A stretch of 64,000 bases of DNA from Leptospira biflexa (GCA_020721905.1 DYLU01000002.1:11314-75313), one strand, 5' to 3'. Shown: positions 6,856-41,037, numbered from the stretch's first letter. The notes: a model not told the origin generated them from the sequence alone. Program-made: numbers and translations.

Positions 6856-6867
6856 AAAGTTTCAATA

Positions 6868-10745: not shown

Positions 10746-10860
10746 GACAACCTCTTGATAAATTTTTTACTCAAATACAACAATATCACATATGTATACT
10801 ATCATACCGTGGAAAGGAGATAACAGGAAGGGAATATTTTTCCGTACTTAAAAATGATCA

Positions 10861-11082: not shown

Positions 11083-11444
11083 TGTTTTAGTACTCCTGAT
11101 TTAAACAATACTTGTTTAACTGACACAACAAGATGATTATATCCCATAGCCTTACAGGTGGTATCCGGGAATATAATAACAGCAAAACCCTGCCGTATTT
11201 GGGGCATCAGAGCTAATAAAATAGAACGAATTTGCCTTTTAATTCTATTCCGTTCAACTGCATTCCCGTAGTTTTTGTTAACCACTATGGCAAAACAAGA
11301 TTGTAATGTGTTGCTCAAATACCCTCCTGCCTGTAATGGCTTCATATATACTATCATCTTCACTCCTTTGCCATATACCCTCTTACCGTTAACAATAGCT
11401 TCTTTAAATTTCTTCAGCCCCTTTAATGAATATCTCCTTTTCAC
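11079..11444 (-). CDS. rnpA: ribonuclease P protein component
   Basis: 121-aa basic protein with the RNR-type motif [12 protein letters not shown], immediately downstream of rpmH. Confidence 0.88.
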
Positions 11445-11466
11445 GGAATAATGATATTAACAAGAA

Positions 11467-11625
11467 TTACTTAGAATTTCGCTTTTCGTCAGAAACAGTT
11501 AATTTGTATCTACCCTTTTGTCTTCTCCTGCGCAATACTTCCTGACCTGCTCTTGTACTCATTCGTGCCCTGAATCCGTGTGTCCGTAATCGTTTGATTA
11601 CTCCTGGTTGAAATGTTCTTTTCAT
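11467..11625 (-). CDS. rpmH: 50S ribosomal protein L34
   Basis: My translation of the minus strand is [58 protein letters not shown] lies upstream. The ORF track missed it; it lists a wrong-frame ORF at 11510-11758 instead. Confidence 0.92.
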
Positions 11626-11797
11626 CATCCCACCTCATTATTAAGAATATTAGTTCAAAGTAGAAAAAATCGTATATAATTACAATAAAAGATATAAAAT
11701 GTTTAGCTATGTTACACGTATTTTTACAATAGCACAACTTTTTTTTAATACACAACAAAAATGCTATTTTAAACGTATTGTGTTTTGTGTCAAGAAT

Positions 11798-12607
11798 TTA
11801 TTGAGGCTTTTTTGATGCAATCACCAGTATAGTGTCAGAAAAACACAGTAAGTTAGCAAGAGTATTATATAATTTTTTATATTTTTGGGCGATAGTTCCA
11901 AAACGTTCAGGATGGTAACCTGAAGGAAAACATCTGATATTAGAAAATCCAATTTGCTGCAAAAGTTTTTTAATACTCCATGGTGCCACATCGATACGGT
12001 GATCCTGTGGATGAGACCTTACCCACTCTTTCCTGTGGCAATAAAATAATGGCCCAAAATACGACGGCAACGTACAGGCAAAAATGCCATAAACTTCAAG
12101 CATCTCATATATTTTGACAAACATAGCATACGGGTCACTAAAATGTTCAAGTACAAACCATGCGGTTATCACATCGTATTTCCTTACAGGAATAAAATCT
12201 TCAAATCCTGTACTATGAACCGGGATATTATATTTGTGTCTGCAATAGCTTGCAGCATATTCTGATATTTCCAGTCCTTCAACCTCGCCAAATCCTGTAT
12301 CTCTGGCAGCCTTGCAAAAAAAACCTAAAGCACATCCAATATCAAGAAGGCTTTTTGAAGAAAGGTTTTCCCTCAAATATTTTTTTATTATTGAAAGCCT
12401 GAAAAGGGATGCAGTATATATTGACTCAAAATCATCTTCATATGTCTTGCCATACTGTGCTTGATATTCCTGGCCAAAGTAATCAGTAGAGTATATTGCT
12501 GGCAAATGACTGGCATTATAAATAATGCGACACCTTGGGCATAGTAACAGATTCTCTGAAATTTTTCTATATTTTGATGATGTGCAGACAGGGCATTTAG
12601 ATGTCAT
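11798..12607 (-). CDS. class I SAM-dependent methyltransferase with N-terminal Zn-ribbon
   Basis: CPVC...CPRC ribbon at the N-terminus and SAM motif I LLDIGCALGFF. The start overlaps the upstream stop as ATGA. Confidence 0.8.
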   Translation of the reverse strand: MTSKCPVCTSSKYRKISENLLLCPRCRIIYNASHLPAIYSTDYFGQEYQAQYGKTYEDDFESIYTASLFRLSIIKKYLRENLSSKSLLDIGCALGFFCKAARDTGFGEVEGLEISEYAASYCRHKYNIPVHSTGFEDFIPVRKYDVITAWFVLEHFSDPYAMFVKIYEMLEVYGIFACTLPSYFGPLFYCHRKEWVRSHPQDHRIDVAPWSIKKLLQQIGFSNIRCFPSGYHPERFGTIAQKYKKLYNTLANLLCFSDTILVIASKKPQ

Positions 12608-13113
12608 TGTTTCTTTTTCTTTTTAGCTGGCTCTACAACAATAGGCACACCTTTTATCCGTGCTTTATCAAGTGACAATAACACCAGTTCTGCATATTGT
12701 TCCGGTATTTCGATAAATGAATATGTAGAATGTATATCAATCTTGCCAACGAGCTTCCCATCAATACCTGAACGTTTTGATATTTCCCTGATGAGGTCGC
12801 CGGGTGTTATCTTATGATTTTTACCAATGTTAATAAAAATTCTTGCCTTACCATCCTTAATATCTTCAAAGATAATAGTACCATCAGATGTTTTTGTAAA
12901 ATTTAATGCGGCAACCTCCGCCATATCAAGCTTTGAGATGTCCCCAATACATTCCTTCAGTAAGGCAGCAGTTATCCGTTTTGTTGATCCAAACCATGGT
13001 AAATGTTTTCTCATTGCTTTTACCAAAGCAAAATATGGTGTAAGATCTTCATGTAAGGCTGATTCCAGTATTTTTTCAATCTTTTTTAACTGATTCATGA
13101 CAGCTTCACTCAA
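12604..13113 (-). CDS. stand-alone DbpA/DeaD-type C-terminal RNA-binding domain protein (no helicase core)
   Basis: FINIGKNHKITPGDLIREISKRSGIDGKLVGKIDIHSTYSFIEIPEQYAE matches the DbpA RBD pattern, and the tail is Lys-rich. The start is ambiguous: TTG 13113 or ATG 13098. Confidence 0.65.
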   Translation of the reverse strand: MSEAVMNQLKKIEKILESALHEDLTPYFALVKAMRKHLPWFGSTKRITAALLKECIGDISKLDMAEVAALNFTKTSDGTIIFEDIKDGKARIFINIGKNHKITPGDLIREISKRSGIDGKLVGKIDIHSTYSFIEIPEQYAELVLLSLDKARIKGVPIVVEPAKKKKKQ

Positions 13114-15312: not shown

Positions 15313-15933
15313 ATGAAATTCTTTCAATTTTTAGCTATTATTACCACACTATCTTCATTATTTGCCTGTTCAACTATCGATGTAGCTTCTACCAATAAAC
15401 AGGCAATACAAAAAAGAATGAAGCGGGTTGCAGTATTTCCCTTTGACATAAAAGGTGCCGGCTGGGGAGATGAATTTTCAGATGCTATCTCACATCAATT
15501 TTTTAAAAGCGGAAAAGTTACTACCATTGAACGTGAAGCCATACAAAAAATTCTGCAGGAACAGCAGCTTTCTGCCTCTGGTTTAATTGACGATAAACAG
15601 GCTGTAAAAATTGGTAAATTTTTAGGTGCAGATGTTATCATCATTGGCCGTGGCTCTGCTTTACAGGCATACAGAAACAATAAGTTTGAACCCAACTGTA
15701 TTGATACTTTTACATTAAAAGCCATTAATACTGAAAATGGCGAAATTTTGCTAACCGTTCGCAAAGAACCAGGAAGGGCATGGGACTGGCGTTACAGAGC
15801 AAAGTTTTGCTGTGGATTAACATTAATCTGGAATCTCAATGATATTTTAATAGAGAGTTCACAATATGATGACATTGCAAAACAGATAGTTAAGCAAATC
15901 CTTGGTATTTTACAAGAAGAAAATAAAAGATGA
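15313..15933 (+). CDS. CsgG/LpoB-like lipoprotein (copy A)
   Basis: Lipobox LSSLFAC. The core VAVFPFD...IEREAIQKILQEQQLSASGLIDDKQAVKIGKFLGADVIIIG follows the CsgG-family pattern. It is a clear paralog of 46076-46699. AGGTGG SD. Confidence 0.6.
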   Translation: MKFFQFLAIITTLSSLFACSTIDVASTNKQAIQKRMKRVAVFPFDIKGAGWGDEFSDAISHQFFKSGKVTTIEREAIQKILQEQQLSASGLIDDKQAVKIGKFLGADVIIIGRGSALQAYRNNKFEPNCIDTFTLKAINTENGEILLTVRKEPGRAWDWRYRAKFCCGLTLIWNLNDILIESSQYDDIAKQIVKQILGILQEENKR

Positions 15934-16831: not shown

Positions 16832-17821
16832 TTATTCTATTACAGCATTGCCTGTATTAACAAGCATTGAGACGACACGTGCTGTAGTTAATTTATCCTT
16901 AGTCTTCAACTTTACAGGTAACCGCAAAAACTGATGCATACATCCTCTTCGTCTGTGTTCTAATGGGAAACTTCCATCATCAAATTGCTTCTTTATACAC
17001 TGATTAAATAACCGTATCCTGAACGCTTCAGCTGTATCGTCTAAAAAAAGTGAAAACTGAATGGCATCGATGCTATCATAGTCTAAATAAAATGGGTATC
17101 CCAGCAATTCATGATTATATGCAACTCTGCACCTGCAACCAGCTTCTGTAAATATGGCATCATTGCGGAACATATAGGCGATAGCTCTTTGAAAACTATC
17201 ATTGCAATTCCTGGTATCTATTTTCATCAGGGCTTTTGCACACATGACAGTTGCAACCGCACAACTTGGAGCATCAGTATGCACTAATCCAAGTCCTTTT
17301 CCAGTACGTTTAAAAAGCAAATATTTCAGTGAATCACCAACTGAACCGATTGGGCAATACAGCCAGCCACCATCATCCCTCTGATGAGACAGAATCCATT
17401 CTATACCTTTCTCCACTTCCTTTCCCTGATATCCGCTTTCCAGCAGGTAATACACTAACTGTCCGGTAATACATGCCGTTGAACAGAAAGGTTTCCAGTT
17501 TAAAGTAAATCCGCCATCATCCTGCTGAAATTTTAGTATTTCTTTAAGAATTGAGTACACAATATTATCACTGACATTACATCCACTTTCAACAAATGAT
17601 GAAAAAAACCACATAATCCCAATACCCGGTGCATCAAAATAATCATAGGCTTTTTTATTGAGAGAATGCAAACTGATTGAATTTACTATTACTTTGCTGT
17701 CTTTTTGTACATTATTTTCTTTTAAGGCAGGAATACTTTTTAATAAAAAAAATAATGATACTGCATCATCTGCCAACCATTGGATTACATCACCATTTAA
17801 ATATTTTGATTGAATCTTCAC
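16832..17821 (-). CDS. prenyltransferase/squalene-oxidase-repeat (alpha/alpha-toroid) protein
   Basis: Three QxxDGG-type repeats (QQDDGGFTLNW, HQRDDGGWLY, QFDDGSFPLEH). No signal peptide. GTG start. Confidence 0.65.
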   Translation of the reverse strand: MKIQSKYLNGDVIQWLADDAVSLFFLLKSIPALKENNVQKDSKVIVNSISLHSLNKKAYDYFDAPGIGIMWFFSSFVESGCNVSDNIVYSILKEILKFQQDDGGFTLNWKPFCSTACITGQLVYYLLESGYQGKEVEKGIEWILSHQRDDGGWLYCPIGSVGDSLKYLLFKRTGKGLGLVHTDAPSCAVATVMCAKALMKIDTRNCNDSFQRAIAYMFRNDAIFTEAGCRCRVAYNHELLGYPFYLDYDSIDAIQFSLFLDDTAEAFRIRLFNQCIKKQFDDGSFPLEHRRRGCMHQFLRLPVKLKTKDKLTTARVVSMLVNTGNAVIE

Positions 17822-22950: not shown

Positions 22951-23541
22951 TTATGATAACCCTTTCAACGCAAACTGGAATATAAATTCAATTAAATCAT
23001 CTATGGTCATCCATTCTTCCGGAGAAAACCACAACCGTGTTCTAACAATCATTGAAGCAATAAGATTCAAAGTAATTTTCTCATCTACTTTTCTGAATAA
23101 TCCCTTTTCAATTCCACGCTTAAGTATAGTGTACCCTATACAATTATATTCATCACGCAGATCCAGAATAACTTTCCTCCTTTCAGGAGAAAGATTCCTG
23201 AGCTCTGTATCAAATAATAACTTTGAAGCTCTTTTTTCCCCCAAAGTAATTTTAACATGAGTTTCTATCAATAATCGTAATTGCTGCAGGGGATCTCCAT
23301 CTTCTTTTTCCAGATACCTGATAGGATTGACGATCTCTTCCATTTCCTCTTTTAAGATTGAGAACAGTATCTCTTCTTTACTTTCAAAAAAATTGTAAAT
23401 ATTGGCAGGCCTGAAACCACATTCATTTGCAATATCCTTCATACTGGTTTCAGCATACCCTTTTTCCCAAAAAAGTACCTGTGATTTTTGCATTATCAGT
23501 GTTCTCTGTTTACCATTTTCTTTTACTACAACATCAGGCAT
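22951..23541 (-). CDS. TetR/AcrR-family transcriptional regulator
   Basis: HTH region FWEKGYAETSMKDIANECGFRPANIYNFFESKEEIL. I set the start to ATG 23541 (AAGGAG 9 nt upstream); the track start at 23580 is a GTG extension. Confidence 0.85.
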   Translation of the reverse strand: MPDVVVKENGKQRTLIMQKSQVLFWEKGYAETSMKDIANECGFRPANIYNFFESKEEILFSILKEEMEEIVNPIRYLEKEDGDPLQQLRLLIETHVKITLGEKRASKLLFDTELRNLSPERRKVILDLRDEYNCIGYTILKRGIEKGLFRKVDEKITLNLIASMIVRTRLWFSPEEWMTIDDLIEFIFQFALKGLS

Positions 23542-23683
23542 CGATATTATCTCCTTAAACTGATAATAAATTGCTTCCACTCTACTTTAATAGCAAAGCA
23601 TTACGAATGAAATCATTGCACCATATCACAATGCTATATTCTTTAAATTTACCACATTAAAATACCATTATCGTAAATACAAG

Positions 23684-23718
23684 AAAAAAAACCTCGTACC
23701 ATATATACGAGGTTTTTT
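23684..23718 (-). terminator. rho-independent terminator (bidirectional shape) ending the minus-strand beta-oxidation operon
   Basis: AAAAAAAA-CCTCGTA-ccatata-TACGAGG-TTTTTT, 34 nt downstream of the crotonase stop. Confidence 0.75.
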
Positions 23719-23751: not shown

Positions 23752-24522
23752 TTATTCACCCTTAAATTCAGGTTTTCGCTTTTGTGCAAACGCCATCATG
23801 CCTTCCATACAATCTTTGGTAGGAAATAGTTTTGCCAGTTCTTCCCGTTCCATTTTTAAATGCATTTCAGGAGACATTGAAGGACTGGCTGACAATACCT
23901 TCAAGATTGCTTTGACAGATAGCGGTGGCCTTTGAGCTAATTCTTCTGCAAATTTCAATACTGCACCCATAAAATCCTGTTCTTCAAAAACTTTATTTAC
24001 CAGACCTATTGCAAGTGCTTCTTCTGCCTCAAGTTGTTTTCCAAAAAGCATTAATTCTAATGCCTTTGCTCTTCCAACCAACCGAGGCAAACGTAATGTA
24101 CCGCCATAACCTGGCATAATACCTAAATTTGTCTCAGTTAAACCTATTCGTGCACCCTTTTTCATGAGCCGTATATGACATGCCATTGCCAATTCACAAC
24201 CACCACCTAAGGCATGCCCATTTAATGCAGCTATAACTGGTTTAGGATAATCTTCTATTTTGTTCCATACATCCTGGCCACGTTTCAAAAAATCAACTGC
24301 ACTGAAATCCCCAAATCCCTGTGAAAGATCCGCACCGGCACAGAAAATCTTATCGCCCGAACCCGTTATAACCAGCACACGAATATTTTTATCAATTTCC
24401 AGTGTATCCAGATACTTTCGCATAGTTTCAAAAACATCATGGCTCAGCTGATTAGCTTTAGGTTTATTAATTGTTAAAACACCAATCATCCCTTTTTGTT
24501 CTAATAATACTGCATCTGACAT
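23752..24522 (-). CDS. enoyl-CoA hydratase (crotonase family)
   Basis: FCAGADL and GHALGGGCELAMACH motifs. I set the start to ATG 24522 (MSDAVLLEQK) behind GGAGGTG; the track start overlaps the upstream gene. Confidence 0.88.
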   Translation of the reverse strand: MSDAVLLEQKGMIGVLTINKPKANQLSHDVFETMRKYLDTLEIDKNIRVLVITGSGDKIFCAGADLSQGFGDFSAVDFLKRGQDVWNKIEDYPKPVIAALNGHALGGGCELAMACHIRLMKKGARIGLTETNLGIMPGYGGTLRLPRLVGRAKALELMLFGKQLEAEEALAIGLVNKVFEEQDFMGAVLKFAEELAQRPPLSVKAILKVLSASPSMSPEMHLKMEREELAKLFPTKDCMEGMMAFAQKRKPEFKGE

Positions 24523-24532
24523 ATGACACCTC

Positions 24533-25696
24533 CTATCTCCCAATTGTTTTAAACGAACCATCTATAATTTCAGGTTCTGGTTTTAGAATGTCTAATTTAA
24601 AGCGCTGTGCCAGATAATTAAGGCAATCAGTTAATTGTTGTGGTTGGACTCCTGATGCCAGTGCAAATGGCCCAGCAAATGCATTCATCCCATATTTTAC
24701 ACCATCATCAATATCCTGAACACCAGCAGCAATACCTTCTTTATATACCTTTACTGCTTCATTAACCTGGACTGCCATAAGATGGAGCGGTGTTATTTCT
24801 TCAGTATCCGGCATCTCAGGAATAATAGCTTTACCATCCTTCCATTCATATATGCCTTTCCCGCTCTTCATCCCAAGATAGCCTTTTTCCAGGCATCCAA
24901 GCAAAAATTTTCCTGGTTTATACCGGGGCGATAGTGTCTGTGCATAATATTCCAGTGTATGGCAGAAAACATCCAGCCCAACAAAATCAGCTGTTTCAAA
25001 AGGAGCCATTTTAACACCCATTTTCTTCATTTTTCCATCTATTTGTGCGGGATGGATTTTTCCTTCATCTAAAATAGCACTAAGTAATGCCTGATTAGGT
25101 GCACTGATTCTGTTAACAATAAAACCCGGTCTATCTTTCAAAACTTTTACGGGGAATTTATCAATTTTCTTTGTTAATTCAAACAAAATATTAATCGTAT
25201 TCTCCGATGTCTTTGCGCCATAGATTAACTCAACCAGTTTCATCCTGGTTACAGGGTTGAAATAATGCATTCCAGCAAATCGCTCAGGATTTGTGACAGC
25301 GGTAGCTATTTCAGTAATGCTCATGGTAGAAGTGTTTGTTGCAAGTATTGCATCAGAAGCGCATGCGGATGAAGCTTTTGCAAATACATCCTTCTTCAAT
25401 TGCATATTTTCCGGTACAGCCTCAATGATTACATGAGCATCCGATACTCCTTTTTGTAAATCTGTTGTTATACTTATTTTTCCAAGAACTTCATCAACAG
25501 TTCCCTGCAATTTCCCTTTTGATGCAAGGAAATCTAAACTTTCCTTTACTTTTTTTATCGCATTATCAAGGAATTCCTGTTTAACATCTATCATAGTAAC
25601 CATGAACCCATTTTGAGCGCACACCTGTGCTATGCCATGACCCATTGCCCCCGAACCTATAACGGCAATTTTCTTTACATCATTAATATTTTTCAT
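24533..25696 (-). CDS. 3-hydroxyacyl-CoA dehydrogenase (long form)
   Basis: Rossmann motif IAVIGSGAMGHGIAQV and the NTS...HYFNPV region. I set the start to ATG 25696 (MKNIND) behind GGAGGT. Confidence 0.88.
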   Translation of the reverse strand: MKNINDVKKIAVIGSGAMGHGIAQVCAQNGFMVTMIDVKQEFLDNAIKKVKESLDFLASKGKLQGTVDEVLGKISITTDLQKGVSDAHVIIEAVPENMQLKKDVFAKASSACASDAILATNTSTMSITEIATAVTNPERFAGMHYFNPVTRMKLVELIYGAKTSENTINILFELTKKIDKFPVKVLKDRPGFIVNRISAPNQALLSAILDEGKIHPAQIDGKMKKMGVKMAPFETADFVGLDVFCHTLEYYAQTLSPRYKPGKFLLGCLEKGYLGMKSGKGIYEWKDGKAIIPEMPDTEEITPLHLMAVQVNEAVKVYKEGIAAGVQDIDDGVKYGMNAFAGPFALASGVQPQQLTDCLNYLAQRFKLDILKPEPEIIDGSFKTIGR

Positions 25697-25723
25697 AATT
25701 ACCTCCATTTATAAAAATAATAG

Positions 25724-26920
25724 CTATTTAAGCTCCTTACTTGACATTTCCAGTATGTTGCGAGCAATAATCAAATGCTGTATCTGTCCGGTACCTTCAA
25801 AAATATCCATAATCTTGCTATCCCTCATCCATTTTTCTGCTAAATAGTGAGTTGAATATCCCACCGGCCCAAGCAATTCACTGCATCGCTGGGTTATCAA
25901 GGTTGCATACCTGCCTGCTTTAGCTTTTGCCATTGATGCTTCTAAGTTATTAAACTGGTTATTATCAGCCATCCAGGCAGCACGCCAGGTTAAAAGTCTC
26001 ATAGCTTCAACATTAGCATCCATCAAATACCACTCACGCTCAACTGCAGAAACATTTGATAAATTCTTCTTATAATCAAAAGTATATCCTTTCTTTTCAT
26101 ATTGTTCCCGGGTAAATTCAACAGCTGCACGTGCAATACCTGTTGCCATTGAAGCAACCAATGGCCTGGTATTATCAAATGTTTTCATGACACCTTTGAA
26201 TCCCTCCGTGGACATTTTCACTTCAGGATCCCCCAATATGTTATTATAAGGAATTCTGCAATCGCTGAGCACAAAGGTACCAGTATCAGAACCCCTGATG
26301 CCTAATTTATGCTCTAAATGCTCCAGAGTAAAACCAGGAGTCCCTTTTTCCACAACAAATGATTTGATTCCAGATTTCCCGGCTTTTTTATCAACTGTCG
26401 CCCATACAACCACCACTTCACTTCTGTCTGCGCAGGTAACAAAAATCTTTTCTCCATTGAGTACCCAGTAATCGCCATCACGAGTAGCGGTTGTTGTAAT
26501 AGCTCCTGAATCAGAACCTGCGCCCGGTTCTGTAATTGCCATAGCAGCCCACTTATTACCAAAACGTTCCAGCTGTTCATCATTAGCAACTGCCAAAATG
26601 GCCGCGTTCCCTAAACCAGCATTTGGGAATGACAATAAAAGAGCTGCATCTCCCCAACACATTTCTTCAATGGTCACTACCATCCCCAGGTTTGCTCCGC
26701 GTTTTGGCTTCTTTACTTCACCCGAAGCAGAAGATTCACCCTCTTTCTTTTTCTTAGGGCGGGCCATTACCTTTATCCCTCTGAACATATCAAGTTCCTT
26801 AGGATATTCATGCTCGGCTTCATCATATTTCCTTGAGATTGGACGCAGAACACCTTCTGCCAGTTTATGCATGTTATCCTGTAATGTTTTTATATAATCC
26901 GGTGTTACTAATTGAATCAT
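25724..26920 (-). CDS. acyl-CoA dehydrogenase (canonical subunit)
   Basis: AITEPGAGSDSG and the C-terminal catalytic region DIFEGTGQIQ. I set the start to ATG 26920 (MIQLVTPDY) behind GAGGAGG; the track's 43-aa N-terminal extension overlaps the upstream gene. Confidence 0.88.
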   Translation of the reverse strand: MIQLVTPDYIKTLQDNMHKLAEGVLRPISRKYDEAEHEYPKELDMFRGIKVMARPKKKKEGESSASGEVKKPKRGANLGMVVTIEEMCWGDAALLLSFPNAGLGNAAILAVANDEQLERFGNKWAAMAITEPGAGSDSGAITTTATRDGDYWVLNGEKIFVTCADRSEVVVVWATVDKKAGKSGIKSFVVEKGTPGFTLEHLEHKLGIRGSDTGTFVLSDCRIPYNNILGDPEVKMSTEGFKGVMKTFDNTRPLVASMATGIARAAVEFTREQYEKKGYTFDYKKNLSNVSAVEREWYLMDANVEAMRLLTWRAAWMADNNQFNNLEASMAKAKAGRYATLITQRCSELLGPVGYSTHYLAEKWMRDSKIMDIFEGTGQIQHLIIARNILEMSSKELK

Positions 26921-26939
26921 TGTTGTCCTCCTCACACTA

Positions 26940-28037
26940 TTAAATAATTGCCATGGCTTCACTAATTGCAATACTACGCCCATTACGATAATATCGCTCA
27001 ACAGGATGATCCCTGATATACCCATGGCCACCAAGAATCTGAACCCCATAATCAGTAAGTTTCATAGTCATTTCTCCAGCATAAATCTTTGCAAGGAATG
27101 ACTCACGTTTTGCATCCATGCCTAACTCAATAGCTGATGCAGCCTTCCATGTTAATAGCCTCATTGCATCAACTTCATAAGCCATTTCAGCTATCATAAA
27201 AGCTATGGATTGCCTGCTGGCTATGGGATCACCAAACTGCTGGCGTTCTTTTGCATATTTCCTTGCGTATTCATATGAAGCACGTGAAATGCCTGTTCCA
27301 ATAGCAGCCATTGCAGTTCTTGTTCTCTGGATTAGCCAATGAAATGCTGTTTCATCCCCTAATTTGTTTCTTTCATGAATTGTACAATTTTCAAACGTAA
27401 CTTCAAAAGTTGGCAGTGCCCACCAACCGCAATTTTTTTCTTTTTCTCCAACAGATAGTCCTTTTTCATCTTTATCTACTATAAACAGATGTGGATTGCC
27501 CTCATAATTTGCTATAACTATCATATGCAACGCTTCATCAGCAAGGGGAACAAAGCACTTTTTCCCATTTATAACATACGAGTTAGCCTTCTTTTCAGCT
27601 TTTGTTTCACAATTCCATACATCAAAACCCACACTAAGTTCGTTAATTGCCAGTGATGCCGGAACAAATGAATCACTGGAAAATTCCGGAAGATACTTTT
27701 CCTTTTGCTCTTTTGAGCCTAAATGAACCAGGGGGAGTACAAAGAGAGCAGGCAGCATTGCATAGACTGCAAAGCTCATATCTCCAAAAGCCAGTTCCTC
27801 AAGAACTAAAGAATGGAGAATTGGTGAACTCCCCATACCATATCCACCATATTCTTCAGGGATCATTGACTGAATTATACCTAGTTCCCAGAATTTTTGG
27901 ACTGCCTGTTTATCCAATTGCCTTTTTTCATCCCATTGGTGAATAGAATCTATCACTGTAGCCTGAACAAGCTGTCGGACAGTATCCTGCATCATCTGCT
28001 GTTCTTCAGATAATGCAAAACTTATTTCTTCTACCAT
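26940..28037 (-). CDS. acyl-CoA dehydrogenase-like protein with degenerate signatures
   Basis: The overall ACAD pattern is present (GG.GYIRDHPVERYYRN), but the TEPxAGSD box reads INELSVGFD. The C-terminus is ISEAMAII* instead of YEGTxxIQ and is truncated. Confidence 0.75.
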   Translation of the reverse strand: MVEEISFALSEEQQMMQDTVRQLVQATVIDSIHQWDEKRQLDKQAVQKFWELGIIQSMIPEEYGGYGMGSSPILHSLVLEELAFGDMSFAVYAMLPALFVLPLVHLGSKEQKEKYLPEFSSDSFVPASLAINELSVGFDVWNCETKAEKKANSYVINGKKCFVPLADEALHMIVIANYEGNPHLFIVDKDEKGLSVGEKEKNCGWWALPTFEVTFENCTIHERNKLGDETAFHWLIQRTRTAMAAIGTGISRASYEYARKYAKERQQFGDPIASRQSIAFMIAEMAYEVDAMRLLTWKAASAIELGMDAKRESFLAKIYAGEMTMKLTDYGVQILGGHGYIRDHPVERYYRNGRSIAISEAMAII

Positions 28038-28054
28038 ATAATAACCTCCTTAAT

Positions 28055-28086
28055 AAAATAAGTACTGACATGTCAGTACTTATTTT
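28055..28086. promoter_or_regulatory. perfect 32-bp palindrome, candidate TetR operator and/or terminator hairpin
   Basis: AAAATAAGTACTGACATGTCAGTACTTATTTT lies between the TetR stop (28105) and the SD/ATG of the ACAD operon (28037). Its core ACTGACATGTCAGT recurs at 28838-28859. Confidence 0.55.
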
Positions 28087-28104
28087 ATTATTGAAATAAG
28101 TCAA

Positions 28105-28719
28105 CTATTTTTTATTAAAAATACCATGTGCAATAATGTTAGAGGCCTTATCAGATATTGCTTCTAAATCGCCAATTAGCATGTTGTCATCCATTGTTAT
28201 AGTCAAATAATAATGGGCTAACCGGAAGACTCCTCCAGCAATTAGATTGGCCATAAAATTTAGATCCATCTGTTTATCAATATTATTGAATTTCACTGCA
28301 ATATTAAGATCAGCAATAATCATATTAATTAATTTGTTTTCAAAATGCTGAATTTTTTGCTCAAAATGATCTGGCAAGCCTAAACCGGCACGTAAAATTA
28401 TATTTGCCCGGTCTCTATCTTCAAAGAAAAATCTGAATGCTTCATACAACCTTTTTTTAAGATACATATATGGAGAAATTGTTTCTAAATCTTCTTTAAC
28501 CGATAATTCATTGATATAGTTTTCCCATTCAATTAAAAATCTTTCCAGTAACGATATAAAAAGATGTTCCTTATTGGAAAAATATTGATAAACAGTTCCC
28601 CGACCAATTTTTGCCGATTCAATAATATCTGAAATTTGTGTTGCATAATAGCCCTTTCCCGAAAATAACCTTTTTGCATGAAGCAATATTTTATCTCTTG
28701 TATCATCTGCTCTGGTCAT
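28105..28719 (-). CDS. TetR-family transcriptional regulator
   Basis: HTH region FSGKGYYATQISDIIESAKIGRGTVYQYFSNKEHLF, flanked on both sides by the same palindrome. Confidence 0.88.
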   Translation of the reverse strand: MTRADDTRDKILLHAKRLFSGKGYYATQISDIIESAKIGRGTVYQYFSNKEHLFISLLERFLIEWENYINELSVKEDLETISPYMYLKKRLYEAFRFFFEDRDRANIILRAGLGLPDHFEQKIQHFENKLINMIIADLNIAVKFNNIDKQMDLNFMANLIAGGVFRLAHYYLTITMDDNMLIGDLEAISDKASNIIAHGIFNKK

Positions 28720-28837: not shown

Positions 28838-28859
28838 TAATACTGACATGTCAGTATTA
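28838..28859. promoter_or_regulatory. 22-bp palindrome, candidate TetR operator in the divergent promoter region
   Basis: TAATACTGACATGTCAGTATTA lies 9 nt downstream of a TTGACA hexamer (28824-28829), between TetR (minus) and the SCP2 gene (plus). Confidence 0.55.
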
Positions 28860-28921: not shown

Positions 28922-29479
28922 ATGGTTATTGCACCAAATACTTCAATTGATCAATTTCTCACAGAAATTATGCCAAAAGCAGCAACGGAAATGCTTCAAA
29001 ATTCCAATGCACCCAAAGAACTTGGTGGCACTGAAATCACCATGGTTGTTGAAGTTAATGGTAAATCCTATGGATTCAAAGTTAAAGATGGCAAAAATAT
29101 TGAAACATGTGGTGATATCGCAAAACCTATGCTGAGATTAAAAATATCCGAAGCTGATTTAAAGAAAATGATTGAAACCAATAATCTCGATATGCTGTTA
29201 GGCATGCAGAAGGATCTGACAAGAGCCCGATATAATGCTCTATCTTCTTTGAAAGGTAGTTTTATTGCCAAATTAAAAAATGACGATGGTTCTGAATTTA
29301 CCATTGAAGCAATACTTAACGGTGCAACATCACCACAATCAATTTTCCGTATGACAACAAAAGACTCAGCTGCTTTGATGAAAAAGGAAACAAATCCTGT
29401 TAATCTTTTCATGTCAGGTGCAATGAAAATCGAAGGTGATATGAGTTTTGCAATGGCAACCCAACCCCTATTCACTTGA
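28922..29479 (+). CDS. SCP2 (sterol-carrier-protein-2-like) lipid-binding domain protein
   Basis: The C-terminus NPVNLFMSGAMKIEGDMSFAMATQPLF matches the SCP2 pattern. AAGGAGG SD. Confidence 0.6.
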   Translation: MVIAPNTSIDQFLTEIMPKAATEMLQNSNAPKELGGTEITMVVEVNGKSYGFKVKDGKNIETCGDIAKPMLRLKISEADLKKMIETNNLDMLLGMQKDLTRARYNALSSLKGSFIAKLKNDDGSEFTIEAILNGATSPQSIFRMTTKDSAALMKKETNPVNLFMSGAMKIEGDMSFAMATQPLFT

Positions 29480-29554: not shown

Positions 29555-31432
29555 ATGGAAACTTTACCCTGGTACAAAGAATATAAAGTTTTAGGTATAC
29601 CAAAAACATTTAAGCCTTATCCTGATAAACCTGTATATGATATTCTTGAAATAGCTGCAAAAAAATACAAAAATAATGGCCTTTTACAAAAGGATTATTT
29701 TATATCTTATCCGCAACTTCTTGAGTATGTAAACAGACTGGCTTCACGCCTACAGTCTTTTGGACTGATCAAAAATGATATTATTGCAACGATTTTACCA
29801 ACTTCTACAGAATTTATAATTGCTGATTACGCAATTTCAAAAGCAGGGCTCATCCATCTGCCATGCAGTTCACTTGAACCTGCTGAAGCTCTTGAACACA
29901 AATTTAAAGAAGGTAAGCCTAAAGCTATAATTTGTACCAGCAACGATATTAAAATTGTCACCCACTTAATAAAAAAGACCAGTGTCAGAGCTATCATCAT
30001 TGCAGACACACGTACCAGCAACTTTGTTCCAACTATCGATACCAATAAAATTAAAATACCAAGCTCCTCAATTTATGAGTTATACTCATTAATCCAGAAT
30101 TCTTCAGGAAACATTAATCCAGTTCCTATTAATGTAGAAACTGATATCGAAACATTAATTTTTACAGGTGGTACCACAGGTATTCCAAAAGGCTGTATGC
30201 TCACACATAGAAATATATATGCTAACTGTATACAGAATCTCCATGCATTAGGTGCCGGAGGATTGACATTCAAGGGGGCAATATCGGTTATATTGGGATT
30301 ACCATTTTTTCATACCTATGGGCATTGCCTTATGCATACAATGATGCTTTTTGGATTCAATATCATCATTATCAACGATCCACGTGATACTAAATCAATG
30401 GTTGAAAATATAAAGAAGCACTATCCGGTTATGCAGATAGGTGTACCAGCTCAATTCATGAAATTAGCTAAAGAAGATCTCAGCGGTATAGGCATAATTG
30501 GTCTTTCAGGATCGGCTCCTCTATCTGAATCGACACAGGAAGAATTTGAAAAACGTTCAAATAGCGGCATAATGGAAGGTTATGGTCTTTCAGAGATGTC
30601 CCCAGTGACACACCTTAATCCTTCAGTGATATACCGTATTTTAGGAGGGCGTTTTGGTGTCCGATTAGTATCTCTCTTATCATCAATTCCCGGAAATAGT
30701 TACTTAACCAATCAGCTCTTTCGTTTGATAGGGACAAGAAACTTTGGCTGGATTTTTACTAAAATTATTTCATATCGCATGAAAAAAACAAGTCAAAAGC
30801 CCGGAAAGAAATCTGTAGAAAAACGAAGAACAATTGGTGTTCCATTCCCCGACACTGAAGTACGTTTTCTTGATTTTGAAACTGGTAACATTCTGACAAT
30901 TGATGATATGCTGGCTGGAAAAAGAGCAGAGATGCTTTTAAAGGGACCACAGCGTATGTTAGGATACTGGCCAAAACCTGATAGTGGCTGTGATGCTGAA
31001 GGTTTCATTCATACCGGTGACATAGTACAGATAGACTCTAATGGTTATTTTTACATTGTTGATCGTTCCAAGGATATGATTAATGTCTCAGGTTTCAAAG
31101 TATATTCAAAAGAAATTGATGACATCGCTGGTGAACATCCACATGTTGAAGCAGCTGCAACTGTTGGAATACCTAATCCAGAAAAAGAAGGTAGCGAAGT
31201 AGTTGTTCTTTTTGTTCAGTTGTATCCACAATACAAAAACAAAACAAAAGAACAAGATATATTAAAATACCTTCAATCAAAAGTTGCAAAATATGCAGTA
31301 CCCAAATTTATACAACTGGTAGATGAACTTCCCCGAACAGCAGTTGAAAAAGTTGATAAAAAAATATTACGGCAAATGGCTATTGATCATTTTCTACTAT
31401 CAAAAAAGAAAGCAAAAATCAAAACAAAATAA
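29555..31432 (+). CDS. long-chain fatty acid-CoA ligase (AMP-forming) with internal insertion
   Basis: Motifs TGGTTGIPKG, EGYGLSE and TGD..., with a C-terminal ...PRTAVEKVDKK. An extra segment of about 70 aa (aa 357-425) lies between the GYGLSE motif and IGVPFP. Confidence 0.88.
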   Translation: METLPWYKEYKVLGIPKTFKPYPDKPVYDILEIAAKKYKNNGLLQKDYFISYPQLLEYVNRLASRLQSFGLIKNDIIATILPTSTEFIIADYAISKAGLIHLPCSSLEPAEALEHKFKEGKPKAIICTSNDIKIVTHLIKKTSVRAIIIADTRTSNFVPTIDTNKIKIPSSSIYELYSLIQNSSGNINPVPINVETDIETLIFTGGTTGIPKGCMLTHRNIYANCIQNLHALGAGGLTFKGAISVILGLPFFHTYGHCLMHTMMLFGFNIIIINDPRDTKSMVENIKKHYPVMQIGVPAQFMKLAKEDLSGIGIIGLSGSAPLSESTQEEFEKRSNSGIMEGYGLSEMSPVTHLNPSVIYRILGGRFGVRLVSLLSSIPGNSYLTNQLFRLIGTRNFGWIFTKIISYRMKKTSQKPGKKSVEKRRTIGVPFPDTEVRFLDFETGNILTIDDMLAGKRAEMLLKGPQRMLGYWPKPDSGCDAEGFIHTGDIVQIDSNGYFYIVDRSKDMINVSGFKVYSKEIDDIAGEHPHVEAAATVGIPNPEKEGSEVVVLFVQLYPQYKNKTKEQDILKYLQSKVAKYAVPKFIQLVDELPRTAVEKVDKKILRQMAIDHFLLSKKKAKIKTK

Positions 31433-31457
31433 TAATCAGAGAACAAGAGAGGTACCA

Positions 31458-32636
31458 ATGAGAGAATGTGTATTTATTGATGGTGTGAGAACACCCAACG
31501 GAAGAGCTCATCGTGAAAAAGGCTGGTTCAGAAACTTAAGGCCTGATGAGCTTTTAACACCAGTGTACAATGCACTATTTGAGCGAAACAGTAAAGTTGC
31601 CCCTGGTATGATTGATGCTGTTTTTGTTGGTTGTGCTAATCCATCAGGCATGCAGAACGATATCGGCAGGTTAGCATGGTTAGCATCTGGACTACCAGAT
31701 TCAGTCCCTACCAATACTTTGACCAATCAATGTCCATCCGGCATGTCTGCCACCATGCATGCCGCACGAGCAATTATGACCGGTGAAGCAGATATCATCA
31801 TAGCTGCTGGCATAGAGGATATGGAAAAAGTACCAATGGGTGCCAATATGGATTTCCCTCCACGCTTGTTGAAATACTATAATGGAGCGGATCTTTTAAT
31901 GGGAGCTACTGCCGAAAAAGTAGCTGAGAAATGGAATATATCTCGAGATGACATGGAAAATATGGCATACTGGTCAAATAAAAAGGCATGGGAAGCAACA
32001 CAAGCCGGCAAATTCAAAAAGGAGATAGTTCCAATAATGGGTCTTGATGATAATGGAAATGAATTCTTAGTAGATAGGGATCAATGGATTCGCGAAAAGG
32101 TAGATAGGGAAAAAATGAAAACCATGATGTCACCATTCAAGCCCAATGGCGTTGTAACAGCAGCAACATCATCACCGCTGACACAGGGTGCTTCAGCACT
32201 ACTTCTCATGAGTAGAGAAAAAGCTGATAAATTGGGACTCCCGTATACATATAAATACTCATATGGAGTATTAGCCGGATGTGATCCTACTGTAATGGGA
32301 ATTGGACCAATTCCTGCTATAAAGAAACTTGTTGCACGGACTGGTTTGAATCTAGACGAAGTGGGAGCAATTGAACTGAATGAAGCTTTTGCAAGTCAGT
32401 CATTAGCATGTATACGTGAACTTAAACTAGATAATGACAATGCTCCATTTAAGCGTGTGAATGTTTGGGGCGGTGCTATTGCTTTAGGTCATCCGTTAGG
32501 TGAATCAGGTGCACGTATTATTGTAACGTTGCTTAATGTGTTACAAACTGAATTCCCGAATGCGAAATATGGACTTGCTTCGCTATGTGGTGCTTTTGGC
32601 AATGCAGGAGCATTACTGGTTGAAAAAGTTAATTAA
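31458..32636 (+). CDS. acetyl-CoA C-acyltransferase (3-ketoacyl-CoA thiolase)
   Basis: Nucleophile region NQCPSGMSA, NEAFASQ, GHPLGESGAR, and C-terminal CGAFGNAGA. I set the start to ATG 31458 (MRECVFIDGVRTP); the track start is an overlap artefact. Confidence 0.88.
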   Translation: MRECVFIDGVRTPNGRAHREKGWFRNLRPDELLTPVYNALFERNSKVAPGMIDAVFVGCANPSGMQNDIGRLAWLASGLPDSVPTNTLTNQCPSGMSATMHAARAIMTGEADIIIAAGIEDMEKVPMGANMDFPPRLLKYYNGADLLMGATAEKVAEKWNISRDDMENMAYWSNKKAWEATQAGKFKKEIVPIMGLDDNGNEFLVDRDQWIREKVDREKMKTMMSPFKPNGVVTAATSSPLTQGASALLLMSREKADKLGLPYTYKYSYGVLAGCDPTVMGIGPIPAIKKLVARTGLNLDEVGAIELNEAFASQSLACIRELKLDNDNAPFKRVNVWGGAIALGHPLGESGARIIVTLLNVLQTEFPNAKYGLASLCGAFGNAGALLVEKVN

Positions 32637-32777: not shown

Positions 32778-33416
32778 GTGAAACGATTTTTAACTATCTT
32801 TTTAACAATTATTTTTGCAGGTATCTCAATCCTTGTTTTTTCACAACAATCAAACTGGAAATTAGTACATGAAAGTAAAGAAGATCAAGCTTTCTTACAA
32901 ATTTTCACTCGTGATATCCCCGGTTCGCCTTATAAAGAATTTAAGGGTGTAAGCTTTTCTGATATTCCTTTTGATATTGCTCTCAAAGTTATTCAGGACT
33001 ACAATAATTATCACAAATGGTATGGCATGTGTAAAGCATTGTATCCAATAAATGTGCGCAACCCAAAAGATCTTGATATGTATTTTATCCTTGACCTTCC
33101 TGTTGTTACAGATCGCGATGTTATTGTTAAAGTTGAATGCGGCTGGGATGAGAAAAAAGGGACCGCCTGGGTAAACATGACATCAGTAAATAATAGTACA
33201 TATAAAAATGACAGCGGTTTAGTGCGTATGACATCTTTAAAAGGAAGATGGGATATAATCAAAAAAGATGATAACCATGTAGAAGTTATTTATCAGGTAC
33301 ATGCTGAATTAGGAGGATCTCTGCCAGCCTGGGTGGTCAATATTGCAGCAAAAGATCAACCGTTAAAGACTTTAAAAGGTGTTTATAAATACAGTAAAAA
33401 GATACGCGATAAGTAA
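32778..33416 (+). CDS. secreted START/SRPBCC-like lipid-binding protein
   Basis: Signal peptide MKRFLTIFLTIIFAGISILVFS, with a length and pattern (YHKWYGMC...VTDRDVIV...W) compatible with a START fold. GTG start behind AAGGAGG. Confidence 0.45.
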   Translation: MKRFLTIFLTIIFAGISILVFSQQSNWKLVHESKEDQAFLQIFTRDIPGSPYKEFKGVSFSDIPFDIALKVIQDYNNYHKWYGMCKALYPINVRNPKDLDMYFILDLPVVTDRDVIVKVECGWDEKKGTAWVNMTSVNNSTYKNDSGLVRMTSLKGRWDIIKKDDNHVEVIYQVHAELGGSLPAWVVNIAAKDQPLKTLKGVYKYSKKIRDK

Positions 33417-39222: not shown

Positions 39223-41037
39223 ATGGGTTACACACATCTATCTCAGGTGTTCTGGGATCAGGTTAAAAAGTATGGTGATAATAAGGTAGCTCTTCGATAC
39301 AAGCCAAAAGATGAGTGGATCGAGTATACCTGGAAGCAATTTGGTGATATGGTACATAATACCAGCAAAGCATTAATTGAATGCGGTATTGGCGAACAGG
39401 AAACAGTGGGAATATTTTCACAAAATATGCCCCAATGGTCAATAGCAGACATTGGTTCATTATGTATACGGGCAATCCCTGTCCCTATTTATGCAACCAA
39501 CACTGCAAAACAGGCCGAATACATCATCAACCATGCAGAAATAAAAGTGATATTTGTTGGAGATGCCGAACAATACTCCAAAGTCATGCAGATACTCCCT
39601 GAAAATACATTTTTGCAGAAGGTTATTGTATTCAAAGAGACTGTCCCAATACAAAAATCAGATAAAATAATGTATTTAAGCGATTTTTTGAAAATTGGGC
39701 AGCAGTCAACTAAAGATAATGAAGTCAAAGAAAGGATGAGCAGAGGGAAATTAGATGATCTTTTAACTTTAATTTATACATCTGGCACCACTGGTGAACC
39801 CAAGGGTGTAATGCTAACTCACTCAAATGCCCTTTTTCAAAGAGAACAGCATGATTTACGACTGATTGATCCAAATGAAAATGATATATCACTGGCATTT
39901 TTGCCATTAAGCCATGTATTTGAACGCATATGGACATACTATGTGTTTGCAAAAGGTATGACCAATAATTACCTGGAGGACCCGGCAAAGATTGTTGAAT
40001 TTATTCAGGAAGTCAAACCTACCATCATGTGTGCTGTTCCACGCTTCTATGAAAAGATTTATGCAACAGTATTTAACAGATTAGAAAGCGCTCCTCCTGC
40101 AAAGCAAAAACTTTTCAAATGGGCAGTTAAAGTAGGTTCTCAGCATAATAACAAAAAGAAAGATCAGCTTTTTATATCACCAATGTTGCGCCTGAAATAT
40201 AAAATAGCTGACGAACTTGTACTCAAAAAAATACGGGATGTTGTGGGCGGAAGAATAAAATTCTTCCCCTGTGCGGGAGCTCCCCTTTCACAGGAAATTG
40301 AGGAATTCTTCTATGCCTGTGGCATATTTATTTGTTATGGTTATGGATTAACGGAGACCACAGCAACCGTTACCTGCCATGAACAGTATAATTTTAAATT
40401 TGGTGCAGTAGGCAAACCGCTTCCCAATGTCGAGGTCAGGATTGATCCCAACAATGGCGAGATTTTAGTCCGTGGTGGCAATGTAATGAAAGGCTATTAC
40501 AAAAAGCCAGAGGCAACTGCTGAAGTGCTTTCATCTGATGGATGGTTCAGAACCGGTGATGCCGGATTCTTTGAAGAAAATGGTGAACTCAGAATTACTG
40601 AGCGAATCAAAGACCTCATGAAAACATCAGGCGGGAAATACATCGCTCCTCAGATGATAGAAAGTACCATTGGCGCCGACCACTATATTGAACAGATTGC
40701 TGTTATTGGTGATCAGCGTAAATATGTTACTGCACTGGTGGTACCTTCATTCCTGGCTCTGGAAGAATATGCAAAAGCCCATAATATATCATATACAAGT
40801 AAAGAAGACCTTATCTCAAAACCCGAGATTATTGAATTTTACCGGCAGCGTATAGAGGAAATGCAGAAGGAATTTGCACGCTTTGAAAAGATAAAAAAAT
40901 TTACCCTTCTCCCTCAGGAATTTACCGTTGAATCAGGTGAGATAACTCCAACATTAAAACTTAAACGCAAAGTTATTGCAGAAAAGTATAATGATATCAT
41001 TGATGAAATGTATAAGGATGATAAGGGTGAAAAATAA
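39223..41037 (+). CDS. long-chain acyl-CoA synthetase (AMP-forming)
   Basis: YTSGTTGEPKG, GYGLTETT, TGD and the ...TPTLKLKRK C-terminus. GAGGGGG SD. Confidence 0.9.
   Translation: MGYTHLSQVFWDQVKKYGDNKVALRYKPKDEWIEYTWKQFGDMVHNTSKALIECGIGEQETVGIFSQNMPQWSIADIGSLCIRAIPVPIYATNTAKQAEYIINHAEIKVIFVGDAEQYSKVMQILPENTFLQKVIVFKETVPIQKSDKIMYLSDFLKIGQQSTKDNEVKERMSRGKLDDLLTLIYTSGTTGEPKGVMLTHSNALFQREQHDLRLIDPNENDISLAFLPLSHVFERIWTYYVFAKGMTNNYLEDPAKIVEFIQEVKPTIMCAVPRFYEKIYATVFNRLESAPPAKQKLFKWAVKVGSQHNNKKKDQLFISPMLRLKYKIADELVLKKIRDVVGGRIKFFPCAGAPLSQEIEEFFYACGIFICYGYGLTETTATVTCHEQYNFKFGAVGKPLPNVEVRIDPNNGEILVRGGNVMKGYYKKPEATAEVLSSDGWFRTGDAGFFEENGELRITERIKDLMKTSGGKYIAPQMIESTIGADHYIEQIAVIGDQRKYVTALVVPSFLALEEYAKAHNISYTSKEDLISKPEIIEFYRQRIEEMQKEFARFEKIKKFTLLPQEFTVESGEITPTLKLKRKVIAEKYNDIIDEMYKDDKGEK

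Follow-up and report, generated by a model that had tools for sequence, protein, structure and literature searches.

Acyl-CoA dehydrogenases (ACADs) of the alpha2beta2 type are composed of two different subunits, an architecture reportedly defined by Thomas and Sampson in 2013 and by Wipperman et al. in the same year. In enzymes of the ChsE4-ChsE5 type, the alpha subunit holds the isoalloxazine of the flavin adenine dinucleotide (FAD), the beta subunit contacts its ADP-ribose, and there is one FAD site per heterodimer (PMC11153573, PMC8399759). According to reviews, only one subunit of these ACADs bears the catalytic glutamate (PMC8399759). A paper citing Wipperman et al. refers to a 'FadE23-FadE24 complex' of this family in Mycobacterium tuberculosis (PMC11980559), and the pair is described there and in a second paper, with reference to Wipperman et al. 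and to Voskuil 2013, as controlled by SigE, induced by isoniazid, and linked to fatty-acid or mycolic-acid recycling (PMC11980559, PMC4334782). Two adjacent ACAD genes, here called beta and alpha, were analyzed in a 64,000-nucleotide stretch of Leptospira biflexa DNA (GCA_020721905.1 DYLU01000002.1:11314-75313; the window). Their database annotation goes no further than 'acyl-CoA dehydrogenase family protein'. Gene structure, residue patterns, synteny, and orthology were observed directly, and they make it most likely that beta and alpha are two subunits of one alpha2beta2-type ACAD of the FadE23/FadE24 lineage, sharing one flavin.

The two genes are arranged head to tail on the minus strand, with beta upstream and alpha downstream.

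26940-28037, minus strand: beta gene, a FadE24-type, predicted non-catalytic ACAD paralogue of 365 aa with Pfam ACAD N, M, and C domains.
25724-26920, minus strand: alpha gene, a FadE23-type, predicted catalytic ACAD of 398 aa, delimited by its ribosome-binding site and homologue lengths.
26921-26939, minus strand: spacer of exactly 19 nt between the beta stop (26940) and the alpha ATG (26920), containing GGAGG.

A GGAGG ribosome-binding site precedes both genes. The longest alpha open reading frame (ORF) begins at 27049, but the true start is the ATG at 26920 (MIQLVTPDY...), since GGAGG precedes it and the resulting 398 aa fit the homologues (396-401 aa). The first-pass annotation, made from this sequence alone, had pointed to the 19-nt spacing and a shared operon, and both are confirmed, with 3-hydroxyacyl-CoA dehydrogenase (HCDH) and enoyl-CoA hydratase (ECH) genes following downstream. 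Adjacent ACAD genes on one strand of one operon, a hallmark of the family, are thus found here and in 68 loci overall. The beta and alpha proteins are only 26% identical to each other.

The residues that contact FAD are divided between the two proteins. The alignment contained 70 alpha and 74 beta orthologues and five solved ACADs, and its columns follow the numbering of human MCAD, whose fragment in the alignment is identical to 1ege residues 132-396. In human SCAD the own-monomer FAD contacts are F152, L154, S155, T187, G160, S161, and E396, while R297, Q365, and G369 contribute from the adjacent monomer (PMC13027082). The former correspond to MCAD columns 133, 135, 136, 168, 141, 142, and 380, and the latter to columns 281, 349, and 353. 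The informative columns are as follows.

Column 136: T in 70/70 alpha; N in 64/74 beta.
Column 142: S in 70/70 alpha; F in 66/74 beta.
Column 168: T or S in 70/70 alpha; P in 74/74 beta.
Column 378: T in 70/70 alpha; M in 57/74 beta.
Column 380: Q in 69/70 alpha; lost in beta.
Column 281: K, T, A, or Q in alpha; R in 74/74 beta.
Column 285: E, K, N, or H in alpha; G in 74/74 beta.
Column 349: E or D in 69/70 alpha; Q in 74/74 beta.
Column 353: P in 68/70 alpha; G in 74/74 beta.

The own-subunit flavin contacts are kept by alpha and lost by beta, and the partner-side ADP contacts show the exact converse. Full retention of the FAD and catalytic residues by the 365-aa protein had been named as a result that would refute the heteromer, and it is not seen: the protein has the substitutions T136N, S142F, T168P, and T378M, and Q380 and helix K are missing. 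The partner-side columns are invariant in beta and vary between orthologues in alpha, a variation that would reflect relaxed selection, as expected if nothing is bound there.

The PROSITE signatures are divided in the same way. Canonical ACADs are recognized by the presence of both PS00072 and PS00073 in each subunit. Here the two are split, with alpha carrying only signature 1 and beta only signature 2, both in the window and in almost every orthologue. Signature 1 is absent from the 74 beta orthologues and was matched only by excluded distant ACADs and one truncated locus. Signature 2 is present in 74 of the 78 ORFs of the beta set before cleaning, and it is absent from the window alpha and nearly all true alphas. 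Four distant ordinary ACADs from the same scan carry both signatures.

The motifs behind this pattern are listed below. Those quoted in the first-pass annotation (INELSVGFD, ISEAMAII*, TEPGAGSD, FEGTGQIQ, and the loop RPKKKKEGESSASGEVKKPKRG) were all recovered in the ORF translations at the expected places.

27621-27647, minus strand: beta INELSVGFD (aa 131-139), degenerate own-subunit FAD box (MCAD T136 replaced by N132, S142 by F138).
27543-27557, minus strand: beta CFVPL (aa 161-165), with the 'WITN' flavin-N5 contact replaced (T168 by P164).
27222-27248, minus strand: beta ERQQFGDPI (aa 264-272), intact partner-subunit contact R265/Q267/F268/G269 (MCAD R281/T283/F284/G285).
27018-27044, minus strand: beta VQILGGHGY (aa 332-340), intact partner-subunit contact Q333/G336/G337 (MCAD Q349/G352/G353), invariant in 74/74.
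26943-26969, minus strand: beta C-terminus AISEAMAII* (aa 357-365), with Glu360 at the catalytic-base column and the chain ending 5 residues later.
26510-26536, minus strand: alpha ITEPGAGSD (aa 129-137), intact own-subunit FAD box (T130, G135, S136) in 70/70, with PROSITE signature 1.
26432-26446, minus strand: alpha IFVTC (aa 159-163), with F160 and T162 at the MCAD W166 and T168 flavin contacts (F in 70/70, T or S in 70/70).
25775-25804, minus strand: alpha IFEGTGQIQH (aa 373-382), catalytic base Glu375 with T377 and Q379.
26066-26095, minus strand: alpha KKGYTFDYKK (aa 276-285), degenerate partner-subunit motif (R281 replaced by T280, F284 by Y283, G285 by K284) with a 3-residue insertion.
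25856-25882, minus strand: alpha SELLGPVGY (aa 347-355), degenerate partner-subunit motif (Q349 replaced by E348, G353 by P352; E or D in 69/70, P in 68/70).
26696-26761, minus strand: alpha Lys-rich loop RPKKKKEGESSASGEVKKPKRG (aa 54-75), in place of the canonical PEEYGGxG loop.

Among the beta orthologues, R, Q, and G of ERQQFGDPI are each found in 74/74 and F in 70/74. The glutamate region of alpha aligns with YEGTSE of Bcd and SCAD and is similarly conserved (E 70/70, T 70/70, Q 69/70).

Because the losses are reciprocal, one FAD site of an alpha-beta dimer would be complete and the other defective on both sides. An alpha-alpha or a beta-beta dimer would have two defective sites. In the predicted enzyme, alpha would hold the isoalloxazine, ribityl, and pyrophosphate of FAD through T130, G135, S136, F160, T162, T377, and Q379, and it would supply the catalytic base Glu375 and the acyl pocket. 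Beta would be a non-catalytic partner, its own flavin pocket altered (N132, F138, P164) and its C-terminal helix missing. Its residues R265/Q267/F268/G269 and Q333/G336/G337 would clamp the ADP half of alpha's FAD across the dimer interface, while alpha could not clamp a FAD in beta because T280, K284, E348, and P352 occupy the partner-side positions. A physical heteromer of this kind would have one FAD and one active site per alpha-beta dimer and two per tetramer. It is expected to carry out the first oxidative step of a fatty-acid beta-oxidation regulon under TetR control, probably on long-chain or bulky lipid substrates, and to pass electrons to an electron-transferring flavoprotein (ETF) encoded elsewhere.

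At the sequence level, the pair therefore has the one FAD site per heterodimer that characterizes the family. The catalytic glutamate is a different matter, being present in both subunits (alpha E375 in 70/70, beta E360 in 72/74, and also M. tuberculosis FadE24). Of the earlier suggestion that only one subunit has the full active site, the part about the flavin stands, since own flavin contacts are found in alpha only, but beta also has a glutamate at the catalytic column. This is a trait of the FadE23/FadE24 lineage and no ground for excluding the pair from the family.

The beta subunit has a fixed C-terminus. Its chain stops 5 residues after the glutamate column in all 74 orthologues and in FadE24. 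Of 17 diverged beta-type representatives, 16 do the same, and the single outlier has a tail of 2 residues. The 5-residue tail also occurs in beta-type clusters from Moraxellaceae, Nannocystaceae, and Deltaproteobacteria metagenome-assembled genomes (MAGs), and its fixed length suggests a structural constraint. Beta lacks helix K and a Q380 equivalent, and M replaces T378. Proline at column 168 is found in all 74 orthologues, in FadE24, and in 13 of the 17 diverged representatives. As the degenerate box and the short C-terminus are both seen in 74/74 orthologues, they are not due to chance or to a sequencing artefact. The AlphaFold2 (AF2) model of beta has the full ACAD fold (pLDDT 91.7), with a TM-score of about 0.88 to MCAD and SCAD, and the best solved matches of beta are the homotetramers 4m9a and 1ukw (E about 1e-54).

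Alpha is closest to the solved structures of Clostridium difficile Bcd and rat SCAD (E about 1e-57). Its loop begins with KKK(K), and K57 and K58 are invariant in the alpha alignment. The Lys/Glu-rich pattern was found in 44 of the 70 orthologues, where the loop is 22-29 aa long with about 35% K+R. It is kept in the alphas of Spirochaetota and Desulfobacterota but not in M. tuberculosis FadE23, where the loop is acidic. In the AF2 model the loop has pLDDT <50 (disordered), and the model is least confident in the FAD loops. A proline that unwinds helix E, a sign of a large pocket in LCAD, was also sought. The invariant Pro99 of alpha lies four columns away from LCAD Pro132; the modelled helix is broken at residues 96-102, around Pro99, which is a weak hint of a large pocket.

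The distribution of the genes suggests that beta and alpha form a unit. A genome scan with beta gave 80 loci, from which the 70 alpha and 74 beta sequences were extracted, and the closest are Spirochaetota MAGs with 92-98% amino-acid identity. In 68 loci alpha comes after beta on the same strand, at a distance of 10-208 nt. These loci belong to Spirochaetota/Leptospirales-like MAGs, Smithella, Desulfobacterales, Desulfatibacillum alkenivorans DSM 16219, and Desulfosudaceae. Four loci seem to deviate, but in two of them the contig ends just after beta, in one the contig end cuts the alpha start, and in one alpha has an internal deletion. In a Desulfobacteraceae MAG (UBA5616; L056, 9123-9474), alpha is reduced to its first ~90 and last ~37 codons with beta intact upstream, which is either a real deletion or an assembly artefact. 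A search from the alpha side found a 364-aa ACAD directly upstream in Desulfosudis (Desulfococcus) oleivorans Hxd3 (CP000859; also D. oleovorans) and in a Thermodesulfobacteriota contig. The neighbourhoods differ: the Spirochaetota have a full beta-oxidation set, Smithella has TetR and an SCP2-beta-alpha cluster beside an ABC transporter, and Desulfatibacillum has the pair alone, without other beta-oxidation genes. Because the rest of the neighbourhood varies, the beta-alpha pair is the conserved unit. In D. oleovorans and most Spirochaetota loci, the gene after alpha encodes HCDH. An unexpected neighbour in Desulfosudis and related Thermodesulfobacteriota is a RACo-type gene (reductive activator of corrinoid proteins; Fer2 and RACo domains) after beta-alpha-HCDH, seen at 10650-12608 of the D. 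oleovorans Hxd3 locus (L081) and in L083 and L084. Beta evolves at about 1.4 times the rate of alpha. Pairwise distances of the two subunits correlate (r 0.71), as expected for any adjacent genes, and this does not discriminate between readings. A literature search found no specific description of this ACAD family in Desulfobacterota or Smithella.

The closest counterpart of the pair is FadE24-FadE23 of M. tuberculosis. An exhaustive profile search with the beta alignment recovered many diverged beta-type clusters with F at column 142, intact R281/Q349/G352/G353, and the 5-residue tail; most also have P at 168, and some are extended by 75-100 aa at the N-terminus. FadE24 (Rv3139) is among these clusters. 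On the M. tuberculosis contig (L085), fadE24 (6001-7407) is followed by fadE23 (Rv3140, 401 aa; 7428-8633), so that the beta-then-alpha order is common to both organisms, with a gap of 20 nt there and 19 nt here. FadE23 is 52% identical to the window alpha over 400 aligned residues (E 2e-139), has a 23-residue tail after the catalytic glutamate as alpha does, and has lost the partner-side residues in the same way (columns 281, 284, 285, 349, and 353 hold E, Y, D, E, and T). FadE24 is only 35% identical to beta, and beta was therefore assigned to it by shared derived characters and synteny. Both proteins have F142, P168, and Glu376, retain R281/Q349/G352/G353, and end at the same position, exactly 5 residues beyond the glutamate. 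There are also differences. FadE24 has an N-terminal extension of ~100 aa that beta lacks, the next gene in M. tuberculosis encodes a zinc-ADH-type oxidoreductase rather than the beta-oxidation set with SCP2, START, and TetR, and the host here is a low-GC, probably anaerobic spirochaete, in contrast to the aerobe M. tuberculosis. A convergent lineage unrelated to known heteromers was favoured at first, as no NCBIfam cut-off was reached and homotetramers ranked first in the PDB. This idea was dropped because the profile search recovered FadE24 and the comparison with FadE23 agreed. By these characters the pair is placed in the FadE23/FadE24 lineage of the alpha2beta2 family, apart from the ChsE, IpdE, and PimCD lineages. 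The heteromeric model of the first-pass annotation is supported by the reciprocal residue losses, the synteny of the 68 loci, and this counterpart.

The genes around the pair are those of fatty-acid degradation.

24533-25708, minus strand: HCDH gene (Pfam 3HCDH_N and 3HCDH), same operon, 15-nt gap after alpha.
23752-24561, minus strand: ECH gene (Pfam ECH_1, synteny), same operon, 29-nt overlap.
23686-23718, minus strand: terminator-like hairpin closing the beta-alpha-HCDH-ECH operon.
22951-23580, minus strand: second TetR regulator gene, with a YsiA/FadR-like C-terminal domain (Pfam TetR_C_24 and TetR_C_4).
28105-28719, minus strand: TetR-family regulator gene (Pfam TetR_N), directly upstream of beta, position conserved in Spirochaetota loci.
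28051-28090, no strand assigned: perfect 40-bp palindrome with core TACTGACATGTCAGTA, between tetR and beta; probable operator.
28838-28859, no strand assigned: second palindrome (22 bp) with the same core, in the tetR/SCP2 divergent intergenic region.
28922-29479, plus strand: SCP2-domain lipid-carrier gene (Pfam SCP2), divergent from the ACAD operon.
29555-31432, plus strand: long-chain-type acyl-CoA synthetase (ACS) gene (Pfam AMP-binding).
31455-32636, plus strand: 3-ketoacyl-CoA thiolase gene (TIGR01930, 378 bits, above the cut-off of 240.55).
32778-33416, plus strand: START-domain lipid-binding gene with a hydrophobic N-terminus (Pfam START).

The palindromes are probably the operator of the adjacent TetR regulator. 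The core TACTGACATGTCAGTA occurs exactly twice in the window, against 0.32 occurrences expected. Of 84 related loci, 44 contain the 14-bp core ACTGACATGTCAGT, in most cases no more than about 100 nt upstream of beta, and these come from two phyla including Desulfobacterota (D. oleovorans Hxd3). As the palindrome core is common to the two divergent operons, they would form one regulon. At its longest, the thiolase ORF would begin at 31323 and share 110 nt with the end of the ACS gene, but its Lys-rich N-terminal extension is probably untranslated; from the Met at 31455 the protein has 393 aa and aligns from residue 2 of FadA models. The combination of HCDH, ECH, ACS, thiolase, SCP2, START, and a FadR-like TetR points to a role in fatty-acid beta-oxidation. 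SCP2 adjoins beta-alpha in Spirochaetota, Smithella, and D. oleovorans, and START genes are likewise present in D. oleovorans and related loci; these recurring neighbours suggest long or bulky lipid substrates. At a distance of 11-14 kb are a second ACS gene (39223-41037, plus strand) and a FadH-like 2,4-dienoyl-CoA reductase gene (41082-43100, minus strand; Oxidored_FMN and Pyr_redox_2), which are consistent with oxidation of unsaturated fatty acids.

Other features of the window are less closely connected to the pair. The window has a GC content of ~37%; with the Spirochaetota origin of the closest loci and the NrdD/NrdG genes described next, this makes the organism label plausible. A gene for NrdD, the anaerobic ribonucleotide reductase (1037-3112, plus strand), adjoins a radical-SAM gene (3309-4004, plus strand) that likely encodes the NrdG activase, and these genes support an anaerobic or facultative lifestyle. 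Two large ORFs have no Pfam match at E <= 1e-6 (4174-6855, minus strand, 893 aa; 16832-17821, minus strand, 329 aa), and two small CsgG-like protein genes of ~206 aa each lie 30 kb apart (15313-15933 and 46076-46699, both plus strand).

Several points weigh against the interpretation of the pair as one heteromeric dehydrogenase. Beta still has a glutamate at the column of the catalytic base, and N132, F138, and P164, which replace the usual residues of its pocket, are conserved, which may mean that the pocket serves a separate purpose. Proteins of the ACAD fold can bind flavin by other residues, as fold matches to nitroalkane oxidase and group D monooxygenases illustrate. Genes for ETF or another electron acceptor were not found in the 64-kb window, and the substrate assignment is drawn only from gene neighbourhood. 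The argument for a FadE23-FadE24 complex comes from secondary citations; Wipperman et al. reportedly count fadE23-fadE24 as one of the alpha2beta2 gene pairs. Two papers raise the possibility that the mycobacterial complex catalyzes something different from acyl-CoA dehydrogenation (PMC11980559, PMC12323669).

These points allow other explanations, which differ in how they treat beta. Beta could be an ACAD-fold protein with its own function, such as a ligand- or nucleotide-binding regulator, a lipid binder, or an enzyme with another cofactor, co-expressed with a self-sufficient alpha. ACAD-fold proteins with other chemistries exist, N132, F138, P164, and Glu360 are conserved rather than drifting, and probe data reportedly suggest that FadE23 and FadE24 bind ATP (PMC12323669). 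However, the strictest conservation in beta is at the positions that would bind the neighbour's FAD (74/74), which is sensible only if it is paired with a flavin-holding ACAD subunit, and alpha, lacking partner-side residues, needs a donor. An independent function is therefore improbable, and an additional role for the beta pocket is compatible with a heteromer. Tandem ACADs are frequent in beta-oxidation operons, and it is conceivable that two independent homotetrameric enzymes with different chain-length preferences are encoded side by side. The complete ACAD folds, the homotetramers among the best PDB matches, and the glutamate in both proteins agree with this, but a beta homodimer would be without T136, S142, T168, T378, and Q380 at both flavin sites and an alpha homodimer without R281, G285, Q349, and G353 at both ADP sites. 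With these losses reciprocal and conserved across phyla, the genes never apart where the contig permits a test, and the orthologous mycobacterial pair treated as a complex in the literature (PMC11980559), two separate enzymes are quite improbable.

The direction of the reaction could also be reversed, the heteromer serving as an enoyl-CoA reductase with bifurcating EtfAB, as in the Bcd, CarC, or AcrC type. Among solved structures alpha matches C. difficile Bcd, a component of the EtfAB/Bcd complex, best; the host probably lives anaerobically; and the NCBIfam family most similar to both subunits is the clostridial acryloyl-CoA reductase AcrC, which is homomeric. Neither subunit exceeds any NCBIfam family cut-off, however, and the AcrC scores (218-221 bits) are far below the cut-off of 640. 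No etf genes are adjacent in the window, and no Etf domains were found among the annotated neighbours in four related loci. The neighbours include an acyl-CoA synthetase, a degradative-type thiolase, and a FadR-like TetR, with the FadH-like dienoyl-CoA reductase 13 kb away, and the same gene pair is found in an aerobe, M. tuberculosis. A reductase is thus very improbable. A further proposal, itself unlikely, builds on the heteromer: beta might bind a ligand such as a long or bulky acyl chain, CoA, or ATP at a second site without redox function, which would gate or widen the substrate range of alpha. It is based on the conserved remodelled beta pocket (N/x132, F138, P164, Glu360, and the fixed 5-residue tail), the SCP2/START linkage in two phyla, the KKKK loop of alpha in the anaerobe clade, and reports suggesting adenine-nucleotide binding and an absence of ordinary ACAD activity for the mycobacterial proteins. 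If true, the anaerobe operon would reveal the physiological substrate class of the isoniazid-induced FadE23-FadE24.

The interpretation of beta and alpha as subunits of one enzyme has consequences for genome annotation. Counting them as two enzymes would overstate ACAD redundancy in the reconstructed metabolism of Smithella, Desulfatibacillum, Desulfococcus/Desulfosudis, and uncultured Spirochaetota. A practical rule is that such ACAD pairs can be recognized by their reciprocal PROSITE signatures, with each subunit carrying only one of the two, and a stop 5 residues past the glutamate column is a further marker of the FadE23/FadE24 lineage. The FadE23/FadE24-type pair is found well beyond Actinobacteria, in anaerobic Spirochaetota and Desulfobacterota. 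There its beta-oxidation and lipid-carrier context offers a testable lead to the role of FadE23-FadE24 in M. tuberculosis.

Compared with other ACADs, the pair shares the division of labour of the steroid heteromers but is not a close relative of them and differs in context. These heteromers include ChsE4-ChsE5 (FadE26-27), ChsE1-ChsE2 (FadE28-29), IpdE1-IpdE2, Tcur3481-3483, and Scd1AB, which are encoded by adjacent genes, as here. In these enzymes one subunit has the isoalloxazine, the catalytic glutamate, and the substrate site, and the other contacts the ADP-ribose of FAD; the sequence pattern of beta and alpha matches this, except that their glutamate is in one subunit only and beta keeps the column. 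The pair is not close to FadE26/27, FadE28/29, and ChsE4/5, with which the first-pass annotation had compared it, and belongs with FadE23/24 instead. Neither a curated model nor the closest solved relatives place it in the steroid clade: the steroid heteromer 6wy8_A matches beta with E 3e-28, compared to 1e-54 for homotetramers, and the IpdE2 model gives 42 bits against a cut-off of 450. The steroid side-chain analogy also does not extend to the context. The KstR regulon, MaoC hydratases, and Ltp2 aldolase of steroid catabolism were not found among the neighbours, which are a crotonase-type ECH, HCDH, thiolase, ACS, SCP2, and START, the genes of fatty-acid beta-oxidation.

PimC/PimD of Rhodopseudomonas palustris (TIGR03204/TIGR03203) is likewise a two-gene ACAD, for anaerobic acyl-CoA degradation, and is suspected to be a heterotetramer by similarity to ChsE1-ChsE2 (PMC12543098). 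The PimD/PimC models give 83/56 bits for beta and 49/41 bits for alpha, below the cut-offs of 624-653. Canonical homotetramers (rat and human SCAD, C. difficile Bcd, Thermus thermophilus MCAD, and Burkholderia thailandensis 4m9a) are the best sequence and fold matches of both subunits and have the same three-domain fold and catalytic glutamate position. They differ in that every subunit has the two halves of the FAD site together, along with PROSITE signatures 1 and 2, whereas here each half is in one subunit only. In the fused two-domain ACAD CasC of Rhodococcus jostii RHA1, the division of labour is within one polypeptide (PMC8399759), in contrast to the two separate genes here. Two distant proteins of ~750-776 aa from the profile search (P0291 and P0313) appear by eye to have one alpha-like half, with the own-subunit FAD box present and the partner motifs gone, and one beta-like half with the opposite pattern, as in CasC. 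Fusions of this kind were also sought among the 740-800-aa matches, but most of those read consist of two canonical ACAD domains (e.g. P0256, P0259, P0260), with a TEPxxGSD box in each and in many cases the YEGT glutamate motif, and they were not used as evidence. Overall it is most likely that the two-subunit design is the one already known from M. tuberculosis FadE23-FadE24, to which the pair in the window adds another member.

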